From Tubulanus polymorphus (Eukaryota > Animalia > Nemertea): a DNA stretch of 64,000 nt. Made by a program: the position numbers and the translations under genes. Positions 20,201 through 23,200 of this stretch are shown here, piece after piece. The DNA is taken from assembly GCF_964204645.1 (NCBI RefSeq), contig NC_134029.1, forward strand, positions 21,198,950-21,262,949, in the 5' to 3' direction. The notes beneath the pieces are model-generated. The model saw nothing but the letters and a program-made list of their open reading frames with translations, had not been told where the DNA came from and did not search any database. Each line of letters opens with the position of its first letter. Positions within the stretch are counted from its first letter, which is position 1.

Positions 20201-23200
20201 ATGCCGTAGGCTTTGTCTTTTGCCTCCCTAATAATTATACTGAATCCAAAACGCTTCGCTAGATTTTCGATCAGATCGACGCAAAGTCCACCGAATTCTT
20301 GTAGTTCTTCTGGATTCGTGTTCCTTATAACAAACGGTTTTTCCTGAAGGAGGAGAAACTGCTTTATGTGTGATACATGGGGAGGAGATGAAATACTACT
20401 GGTCGCTAAATCTAGCAATTCTAGGTCAGTAAATATCGTGGCGACAAGATTTTATTTCAGTTATTCACGGGAAAACTCCATACAATATATAACCTTTCCC
20501 GATGATACTCACAACGACAGCTATAACTCTCAAAGTACTTCCTCGAATAAAAGTCGTTCGCATGTTTGAATCTCGAGGCCACGTATCAATCTTAAAAAAA
20601 GAGAAATACACGTTAAAATCATGAATAATTGCCGGGTAATAAAGTCCATCGAATTGAAGGTGTCTATAAGCTGTTCATCGATTTGGGAATTGCCGCCTTT
20701 TCCAGGAATGAATTTGGATTTATAGATGCTGCGCAAATATTCCCAGAAGGGACCATTAAAAATTAAATCTGAAATTGCAGTTTTTACACTCAGAGAGTTT
20801 ATCTACATGGGACAATGCCATGCATGTAATAGATTATCGGCTGGATGCTCGTGAGTTGAAGTACTGATTAGATTTTACAGGCCATTAGACATTAAATGTG
20901 CAAATAAAAACCCATCCATCATGTCCTGGTATGCTGTATACCTCATCCCCCTAACTGCTCTGTTCATTTATCGGTTTTAAATTTGCATAATTTCTAAAAC
21001 TGGCAGCAATATCAGGAAATTATTATATAACAGTTTTCCATGTGAGAGATCCGAGGATAACGTGCGCGCCCGATTCCGATGTTTTATTTATAACCTAAAT
21101 AACTTTCTAAATGTAATTCTGATGACCAAAGGTCATTATGCTAAAAGCGGGAGATAATGAGTCCTGATGGAATCGAAAAGCTAACAGGAAATAAAGATAA
21201 TTTGACCATAACGGGCGAGCAACGCAAGTTCGCAGCATGGGAGAATTCAATCAGGAAGACATTTTAATTTAGTTGTAGATGTGTAATAAATGTATATATA
21301 ATATAGCCCGATGGTCGTTAGGCGACGTGGACCTAGGTAGAAAGGTAGAGGAAAACATAATCGCGACACAATCAGCTACAGTTACCGGTAAAATAGCTCC
21401 AGAATTCCATGTAAAAGTTTGGAGTAATGGAACATTATTTATACTCACTGAAATAACGATACACTCGATTTTTACGTGTTTGTATGTTTTCGTATCATGC
21501 AAAAAAAAAACTGGCGGCGAAATACCACCAACACAAACACACTCGCATGCAGATAAAACCCCCCAAAACGCACACATCTACCTATCCCCACTGATGACCT
21601 TACATTTGTAAATGTTTTATTTTGGAAGTGAAACTTTGATTTCAGGGGAAAAAAACGATCGTGACTTATTACTCATATTAACGTATCCAGATATATCACT
21701 TTTCTATATATATGAGGCATGCAATCCTGAATGAAATTGATCCCGCTACGGGGAGGAAAATGGGTTATTTGAGTGGGTTGGTGCAGTGCAGGGTATAAGG
21801 TATTGTGCTAGAAGTCTGGTATTATCAATGTTCTAACCGACGTGTCCCTCGTCAACATGTCTCGTCGAAAACATACCCAAACACCCCCGGTGACTAGTAA
21901 ATTACAAAACTGAGTTACGGAATACTAATTTAATGGATCGTAAAAGCACAAAATAATTTAAGGAATGAGAAAGAATTTTATGTTATTTGTAAGAATAATG
22001 GGCAAAACATGCCGGGGGGTTGTTTTACTAAATCTAACTTACCCGATCTTCCTCCTATAGCAGACAAATTTGATACGTATTTATTGAAGTAAAATGGGAA
22101 AACAGACGAATATGAAAGAATTATGTTATTCTAAAAAAAAAGATCGCTCGTATCTGCTATGGGTTACGGGGATGTAACTTTAGTGTAGTTGACGAGGAAC
22201 TGAAGTAATAGTTGATGTTAGTGTAAACGTTAGGTGAAATGTATTCTGATATTCTTACCTCGCCGTGTTGAGACATTATCTGCATAAGCGGCGTAGCGTC
22301 GACCATAGCAAAGAAATAACGAACAAGAACGAATTAAATAAAGAACATTTGATTATTACAAGAAGCCACGTAAAAACCGCACATGTGTTGAATTTGTACA
22401 AAAACATATAATGATGATAACGATAACACGTTGCATAAAGTTTGGTTTTTTAAATTGTCGGTCTTCGGAAATAAATCGACTCGATGTTCGTTTCGTCTGC
22501 AAACCAAACTGTCTGCAAATTTATGACATCACATTAAGAATAATCGAAACAGTATACCAGATAAAACCGTTTAAGAATTCTAGACAGCAGAATAGTTCGA
22601 TTCATAAAAAATGTTTGAGATAAGCGAGTAGAAGACACTGAAACTTGTCCAATAGAGGTAGGACGTTTAGGTGACACGGTTATTCATACAGTATTGTGTG
22701 TGCATCGATTTTAGGTTTGCTGTTGTATAAACTCCGCTACTGGTTGGTAACTTCACTCAACTTACAAGAGATAATAGGTCTAAACGTGATATGAATACTG
22801 ATAATCAAGCACAGTTTATGTATGATTATCCCTGTGGATAGTCGAATGCGTAGAGTTCATGTTTTAGATAATTTCCCTGCGCGATGGCCGTCACGAAGTA
22901 CGCTATGTTGACTTATAGGGTTCTATTTGCGGGAGGTGCTCAGTTTCCCCGGCCATATTCTATGTGACCCTTGATGTACTAACATACTTATTCGCTACAC
23001 GTACGTGTAGCCTTTTTTGAAAAGTATCTTGCGAGATAGACGCCGAAAAGATATTAGCCATTTCGTATAGTTACTAATCTCCCTTGCTGACGTAAATGGT
23101 CGGTGGTAAAAATAGTCAACGTACATCAAACTATTACAGTTACAGAGTCGCGTCCAGTAATGATTTGAAATCACATTAGATAATGCATTGAACCACACAG

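Follow-up and report, generated by a model that had tools for sequence, protein, structure and literature searches.

Exon 9 of vertebrate GRIK1 (45 nucleotides (nt), 15 amino acids) encodes a lysine-rich insert in the kainate receptor subunit GluK1. The insert lies close to the interface between the amino-terminal domain (ATD) and the ligand-binding domain (LBD) and is described as altering desensitisation, recovery, agonist efficacy and modulation by Neto (PMC11540303). The exon 9-included form is reported to predominate in adult human brain (PMC8257547), and in human data the insert has been described as unique among ionotropic glutamate receptors (iGluRs). GluN1 exon 5 encodes another ATD insert (21 amino acids) that acts at the ATD-LBD interface (PMC11540303, PMC8257547). 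Here we describe a 21-nt exon, termed ME1, in an iGluR gene of the nemertean Tubulanus polymorphus. The gene, iGluR-A, lies on the minus strand of a 64,000-nt window (contig NC_134029.1, positions 21,198,950 to 21,262,949), and all positions given below count from the first letter of that window. Like GRIK1 exon 9, ME1 is a short in-frame exon that precedes the last strand motif of the ATD; its peptide is acidic to neutral rather than lysine-rich, and only its included form has been seen. GluN1 exon 5 sits at another exon junction in another subfamily, and the similarity is one of space only, as these papers describe it.

ME1 is a real, frame-preserving microexon. A sequence-only reading had proposed two microexons, ME1 and the 12-nt ME2, in a 3030-nt phase-0 interval between an upstream ATD exon and a downstream exon that starts IDTW. 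The coordinates, strand, sequences and splice borders of both agree with the DNA (ME1: acceptor ttatgcag, donor GAG/gtaaga; ME2: acceptor ctgctatag, donor CGG/gtaagt; a slash marks a splice junction or its place in the protein). Four sequencing runs cover the region, drawn from one study and at most two samples, none with its kind on record. Run X2 was treated as RNA because it contains GT..AG joints, and X1, X3 and X4 as DNA because they contain none. The RNA evidence consists of contigs, which show presence, not absence, and drop rare variants. One X2 contig of 3001 nt links position 20590 to 22259 over a 1668-nt GT..AG gap, and its pieces sum to 3001, leaving no space for ME2. A second, of 1484 nt, crosses four upstream joints and then places four letters on 23620-23617; its 25 loose letters are the last 17 of ME1 followed by the first 8 of the exon that begins at 20590. 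The RefSeq protein XP_074650306.1 carries NKNTTRW-IMSQHGE-IDTW and no EEDR, the peptide of ME2, although this model and the X2 contigs may derive from one RNA sample. ME1 thus falls within the definition of a microexon as an exon of 3-51 nt spliced on both sides. In addition, a loose end of 8 letters at 22259 adjoins a 135-nt contig spanning 22393-22259. This contig is best read as a splicing intermediate from which the downstream intron had been removed while the upstream intron was retained, a reading that leans on our assumption that contigs break at such branches. Of the two proposed microexons, then, contig joints and RefSeq bear out ME1, and ME2 is absent from both sources. The proposed neural switch did not emerge: the mature form with ME1 included is the only one in X2 and RefSeq, and with neither a skipped form nor an ME2 form the switch is unproven.

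The splice sites of ME1 invite comparison with the eMIC/SRRM3-4 class of microexons. Fly eMIC exons are described as enriched in ion channels, with acceptors that are very weak and follow long AG exclusion zones; UGC close to the acceptor, UCUC tracts and branch points of the CUAAY type complete the description (PMC8797185). In one supplement to that work, five of six receptor names return no rows, and for the sixth, clumsy, the two rows listed of three give long exons only. Mammalian eMIC exons are reported to combine strong donors with a displaced branch point and tract, and UGC occurs in 74-79% of them without being strictly required (bioRxiv 10.1101/2024.09.17.613571). For SRRM4 microexons, a downstream-first splicing order is given in 58% of cases (PMC10250204). 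ME1 is likewise short and frame-preserving, lies in an ion-channel host, and has a weak acceptor, a long AG-free zone, a displaced tract and a likely downstream-first order. Scored with matrices built from a small set, the 14 donors and 14 acceptors of the gene itself, the ME1 acceptor reaches 2.6, the lowest value in the gene (the other 14 acceptors score 4.8-10.8), and ranks 15th among the 121 AGs of the interval. The ME1 donor scores 9.1 and is second among 168 GTs, behind only that of ME2, in keeping with the strong donors claimed for both. Among the 3144 minus-strand AG gaps of the window, none outside simple repeats is longer than the 181-nt AG-free zone that precedes ME1; zones at the other acceptors of the gene measure 13-103 nt, and at least 181 nt is reached in 0.05% of interval shuffles (a threshold taken from the observed value). 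The eMIC-type combination of weak acceptor and long AG exclusion zone is therefore present at ME1.

A second candidate class of regulatory element lies in the downstream intron. The motif (U)GCAUG is bound by Rbfox, which is reported to favour neuronal microexons (PMC10551640). The downstream intron contains four TGCATG against 0.3 expected (P 2.6e-4, uncorrected, from about ten motif looks), placing this hexamer second of 1228 there. With 8.5% of the intron length of the gene, this intron holds four of its eight intronic TGCATG (binomial P 0.003). These putative Rbfox sites are 500-1400 nt from ME1. Judged on these signals, ME1 looks like a regulated microexon, and the motifs predict that nerve splicing factors (eMIC-type, Srrm234) likely control it. 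At 21212-21182 (minus strand) a further AG, the third, follows an AG-free stretch of 150 nt, with no strong donor after it; the 24 nt above it are 79% like the tract above ME1.

In the protein, ME1 likely falls at the position of the GluK1 exon-9 insert, as judged by alignment. Human GluK1-1 (P0007) reads EGTEK-AAGEVSKHLYKVWKK-IGIW and the short isoform (P0160) EGTEK-IGIW, a border ambiguous by one K. In a profile of at most 111 homologue segments, the W/IDTW junction of the skipped form falls on the column where the 15-residue GluK1 insert opens, and a phase-0 intron of the adjacent paralogue in the window, iGluR-B, shares this column. The loop that starts at the TG glycine and ends at the xGxW tryptophan spans 30-32 amino acids in 74 of 94 measurable homologues (114 aligned); that of iGluR-A reaches 30 when ME1 is left out and 37 when it is included. 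IMSQHGE has no sequence likeness to the GluK1 insert, and free trees do not make the host an orthologue of GluK1. With a host not demonstrably orthologous to GluK1 or to kainate receptors, the shared site would be convergence at an old intron, not a conserved exon. The homologous splice hot spot of the sequence-only reading thus survives as a likely match of position, to which a decapod case (below) is added, and not as common descent. Within the iGluR-B intron, an internal CAG/GTAAGA at about 49059/49058 (minus strand) repeats the true donor, in the shape of a recursive or zero-length exon.

The account we put forward, to which we give an even chance, treats ME1 as a real exon of a divergent receptor that adds seven residues to the likely GluK1 exon-9 loop. 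It would be a factor-dependent neural microexon, included in most transcripts, that tunes gating from the ATD-LBD interface. The strong ME1 donor would allow splicing to begin with the downstream intron. The acceptor, weak and with branch point and tract far upstream inside the AG-free zone, would then require an eMIC-type activator (Srrm234), and Rbfox bound at the downstream TGCATG cluster would likely assist inclusion. Cells that lack such factors would skip ME1 and build the short canonical hairpin. By analogy, the insert may tune gating through a chemistry other than that of the GluK1 insert. A helix that loops out ME2 possibly keeps that candidate silent. Tetrapod GluK1, a decapod kainate-type receptor and iGluR-A probably acquired their inserts independently, here at an old phase-0 intron and in a surface loop that tolerates insertions.

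Several observations weigh against this account. No joint from 23621 to 20590, the mark of skipping, was seen in the contigs of the one spliced run, and the RefSeq cluster of the ME1 protein has a single member with no isoform label. No UGC lies at -22..-6 before ME1. The TGC close to the 3′ splice site that had been claimed for both candidates is present before ME2, at -8; before ME1, the TGC at -5 belongs to the acceptor itself (TGCAG) and the next is at -31. The UGC argument is weak in any case, since two of the 14 constitutive acceptors of iGluR-A also have TGC at -22..-6. Neither TCTC nor CTCT occurs within 200 nt of ME1, and the predicted branch point is TTAAT, not CTAAY, so that the UCUC-rich tract and CUAAY branch point of eMIC exons are both lacking. 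Donors are weak and introns short at fly eMIC exons; ME1, with a strong donor and long introns, is mammal-like. At the protein level, AlphaFold confidence is below 50 at iGluR-A residues 404-426. The four possible forms score 54.6-58.3 bits against the profile, less than 4 bits apart, which leaves the register unfixed, and the profile alignment of the ME1 form is shifted by four residues. Delta-type loops measure 35-37 amino acids, and with ME1 the iGluR-A loop aligns to GluD1 without a gap.

The class of the host bears directly on the last point. In none of three free trees does iGluR-A group with the kainate clade; it sits on a long branch, in two of them beside another long branch. A mixture-model tree groups it with the deltas (support 90), unlike the two others; the approximately unbiased test does not reject a kainate placement (P 0.186). 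No orthologue was found among the 150 best representatives (best other match 28% identity, full length) or in word-index searches. The receptor retains R485 and has D705 and N-S-A-L, without the G653, T655 and E705 by which kainate receptors bind glutamate (numbering of PMC6307864). Because of D705 and the missing G-S-T motif, the ligand is likely not glutamate bound in the kainate manner; several invertebrate deltas are described as gated by GABA (PMC10861852). Loop length, D705 and the absent glutamate motif are shared with delta receptors; the placement is unstable, however, the pore is nearer the kainate QQGSELMPKA, and A-F-P-I-T and YYTANLTAF are divergent. These unusual ligand and gate motifs lie at 19964-19702 and 18836-17458 (minus strand), with A-F-P-I-T preceding R485. 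The host is accordingly a long-branch divergent iGluR, not a demonstrated kainate receptor. The adjacent iGluR-B (about 46900-54300, minus strand) is not its sister in the tree, and no compared protein matches iGluR-B.

The gap-free alignment to GluD1 is the basis of the alternative that survives best. In it, ME1 is constitutive and completes a delta-type long loop (for example as the tail of an older exon severed by intron gain); nothing is switched, and ME2 would be a pseudo-exon. We regard this as unlikely, while according it real weight. It agrees with the exclusive sighting of the ME1-included form, with the delta-like D705 and NSAL (653-655 region), and with the delta placement in one tree. 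It also agrees with ME2 being the sole such site in 19,550 intron bases, where chance alone predicts more of the bare pattern. It has difficulty with the two trees that place iGluR-A away from the deltas and with an ME1 acceptor that is the weakest of the gene behind its longest AG-free zone. The TGCATG cluster specific to the downstream intron and the splice sites of ME2, which beat all 273 other pairs, also speak against it.

ME2 combines the best donor of the interval with its second best acceptor (7.1). Scanned on both strands of the window, it is the top microexon-shaped pair of 274, equalled in 11 of 3000 shuffles (about 0.004); over the 19.5 kb of introns in the gene, this corresponds to a P of about 0.02. 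The bare pattern YAG-(3n, no stop)-GTRAG is weak evidence, because dinucleotide shuffles of the 3030-nt interval contain it 0.48 times on average, and 8.7% of 2000 such shuffles contain it at least twice. An AG-free zone of at least 74 nt together with TGC at -22..-6 is found in 0.4% of shuffles, with thresholds taken from the observed values. Against the weak acceptors of eMIC exons, the ME2 acceptor and its 74-nt zone are unremarkable. The letters of ME2 appear in no joint or loose end of the four runs, one of them spliced, nor in RefSeq. The helix predicted to loop out ME2 (22200-22188 with 21856-21844) reaches -20.9 kcal/mol, matched by 11 of 300 shuffles (fold z -2.14), and is outdone in two of four control introns (-21.4 and -24.1 kcal/mol). 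RNA bridges are reported to let distal sites act and loop-outs to favour skipping (PMC10790352). Of 22 variants in the 3030 nt, none falls in the ME1 or ME2 regions, a sparse count (P 0.21 and 0.5). Weighing its splice signals against its absence from RNA, we place the chance that ME2 is a real microexon a little under one half; it is likely at best a rare or tissue-restricted second microexon.

Were both microexons used, different neurons could carry +0, +4, +7 or +11 residues, as decapods carry +0, +6 or +9. Such a full tandem switch seems improbable to us. The quality and in-frame 12-nt spacing of the ME2 sites would suit it, as would the TGC at -8, a GCATG 31 nt downstream and a predicted helix that brackets ME2; the decapod parallel lends it a precedent, and contigs lose rare variants. 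Set against these are the missing ME2 transcripts, an AG-free zone that is ordinary for the gene, a helix no better than the best in two of four control introns, and the possibility that the decapod SIQ is an alternative acceptor and not an exon.

The unfixed register admits a further alternative, which we consider very improbable. Here the tryptophan conserved among relatives would be W407, and the site would not be that of GluK1 exon 9: ME1, alone or together with ME2, would belong to the ATD-LBD linker and offset a short linker exon. Alignments by phmmer with GluK2 and GluK5 adopt this register, as does the ME1 form when aligned to the profile. The downstream exon has 26 amino acids where iGluR-B has 40, and the form with both ME1 and ME2 scores highest, by 2 bits. 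Yet this register needs a four-residue hairpin deletion and an intron shift, while IDTW matches IGIW and VGTW and, like SARW in iGluR-B, comes directly after a phase-0 intron. Least credible of all is that the second donor serves an 88-nt frame-shifting poison exon (22130-22043), which has a T10-AG acceptor 76 nt above ME2 that scores 3.8 against 7.1 for ME2 and has no supporting joint, or that the ME1 contig over 22393-22259 marks an internal start of an ATD-less chain, where the 18 codons above ME1 contain no stop and include Met codons but by eye are unlike a signal peptide, and a splicing intermediate accounts for the contig.

The position occupied by ME1 also carries inserts in a decapod kainate-type receptor, known here from automatic RefSeq protein models (P0031, P0210-P0215, P0218). 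In Palaemon carinicauda (XP_068238711-716), isoforms X4 and X5 read NLTK/VGTW, X2 reads NLTK/NAHVVQ/VGTW, and X1 and X3 read NLTK/NAHVVQ/SIQ/VGTW. Macrobrachium nipponense (XP_064122513/519) has the NAHVVQ and NAHVVQ+SIQ forms, and Homarus isoform X3 reads NLTK/ENEVVK/VGTW, against a 31-residue loop in 38 of 43 parsed relatives (51 examined). SIQ may reflect an alternative acceptor rather than an exon. These stacked in-frame inserts (+6 and +6+3 amino acids) share the column of ME1; they differ in that the skipped form is annotated and in that their sequences are unrelated to ME1 and ME2. Long inserts in P0147 and P0101 begin V-S; they were left out of account, being probable read-through of introns in automatic models.

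How special the loop is can be gauged from receptor isoforms, a small sample biased by clusters picked for long loops. Across 18 same-species isoform groups, three groups (two genes) showed short in-frame differences here, four showed them at a second ATD site before xTxxAL, and three elsewhere. On these counts, ATD inserts recur at two sites or more, of which the loop is one, and the second has short inserts equally often. Seven long-loop proteins were checked: one cluster varied at the site and four were singletons. In Glandiceps the loop has 37 amino acids in all four isoforms. These observations temper a broader proposal, which we hold as doubtful, that the last ATD hairpin is a convergent microexon hot spot. 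Tetrapod GluK1, a decapod kainate-type receptor and the nemertean receptor would each have acquired short regulated inserts at one ancient intron independently, the two invertebrate ones as stacked pairs, and an RNA helix would both silence ME2 and bring Rbfox sites near ME1. At the second site, before TETALM/TEVALM, 8-residue alternative inserts occur in crustacean kainate-type receptors (P0227/P0228, P0210-P0213, P0239-P0241). The phase-0 intron of iGluR-A at that site (26663-25274) contains no microexon-shaped site in a strict scan.

The features of the locus are collected in the table. All 16 segments of XP_074650306.1 (P0002; RefSeq label 'glutamate receptor ionotropic, kainate 2-like') were placed on the window, and the S2-M4 exon of iGluR-A is 100% identical to this T. 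polymorphus protein. The gene has the ATD, LBD and M1-M4 architecture and the pore motif of AMPA/kainate/delta-type iGluRs. AlphaFold (98-row alignment) and Foldseek support the fold, and comparison with the ESM Atlas yields the label 'iGluR' only. As sole query, the 34-residue upstream exon matched no iGluR in the PDB.

Table. Features of iGluR-A, the ME1 and ME2 interval and the iGluR-B comparator (window positions; acceptor distances are counted upstream of the exon)
Feature	Position	Strand	Basis
iGluR-A coding span, 16 coding exons including ME1, 897 amino acids	17260..39503	-	RefSeq protein mapping, contig joints, Pfam Lig_chan
Upstream ATD exon, ends NKNTTRW, phase-0 donor	23621..23722	-	contigs and RefSeq mapping
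AG-free zone before ME1, 181 nt	22282..22462	-	AG-gap scan
Predicted branch point TTAAT, -58 of ME1, then T-rich tract	22333..22337	-	sole YTRAY match in 200 nt; function putative
TGC at -31 of ME1, end of pyrimidine tract, candidate eMIC element	22308..22310	-	function putative
ME1, 21 nt, IMSQHGE (residues 408-414), spliced in	22259..22279	-	contig joint, loose end, RefSeq protein
5′ arm of predicted 13-bp helix looping out ME2	22188..22200	-	fold prediction, marginal
AG-free zone before ME2, 74 nt, TGC at -8 (22062-22060)	22057..22130	-	AG-gap scan
ME2, candidate 12-nt microexon EEDR, not seen spliced	22043..22054	-	splice-site pair score
3′ arm of predicted 13-bp helix looping out ME2	21844..21856	-	fold prediction, marginal
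Four TGCATG (Rbfox-type), starts 21723, 21551, 21501, 20824; GCATG at 22012	20819..21723	-	motif count
Exon after the interval, begins with IDTW; covers the last strand motif of the ATD and the ATD-LBD linker	20513..20590	-	contigs and RefSeq mapping
iGluR-B matching phase-0 intron (FQ/SARW), 133 nt, no microexon, comparator	48994..49126	-	exon ends by homology only

Elsewhere in iGluR-A, a GC-AG intron at 27307-27087 (minus strand; donor CTG/gcaagt) is backed by a contig joint, and high-copy repeats lie in introns at about 18200-18500 and 18900-19145, with summed contig depth in the thousands. Between the two receptor genes are two near-identical long frames for rhodopsin-type G-protein-coupled receptors on the plus strand (42844-43881, Pfam 7tm_1; 45091-46059). 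A short-chain dehydrogenase (Pfam adh_short) lies at 55672-56600 on the plus strand. At 1500-5200, 6100-11000 and 12900-15600 the open frames, judged by eye, suggest repeated sulfotransferase-like copies, a MATE-like transporter and a putative leucine-rich-repeat gene.

Parts of this picture are already known: ME1 is annotated in RefSeq, and GluK1 exon 9 and eMIC microexons have been described. What draws interest is the proposed convergence at a single intron, which is apparently unpublished. Literature searches, whose coverage leaves out most subscription papers, found no work on crustacean kainate microexons, nemertean microexons or Tubulanus glutamate receptors. Broader searches, judged by their listings, show no such inserts in invertebrate iGluRs, though supplements on bioRxiv may list some. 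Should ME1 be constitutive and ME2 silent, ME1 would be an ordinary annotated small exon, and the decapod case would remain. If the account given here is true, iGluR-A would show that a spiralian ion channel, too, can have eMIC-type architecture. The comparison with tetrapod GluK1 and decapod receptors suggests that evolution has repeatedly used this ATD loop to tune receptors.

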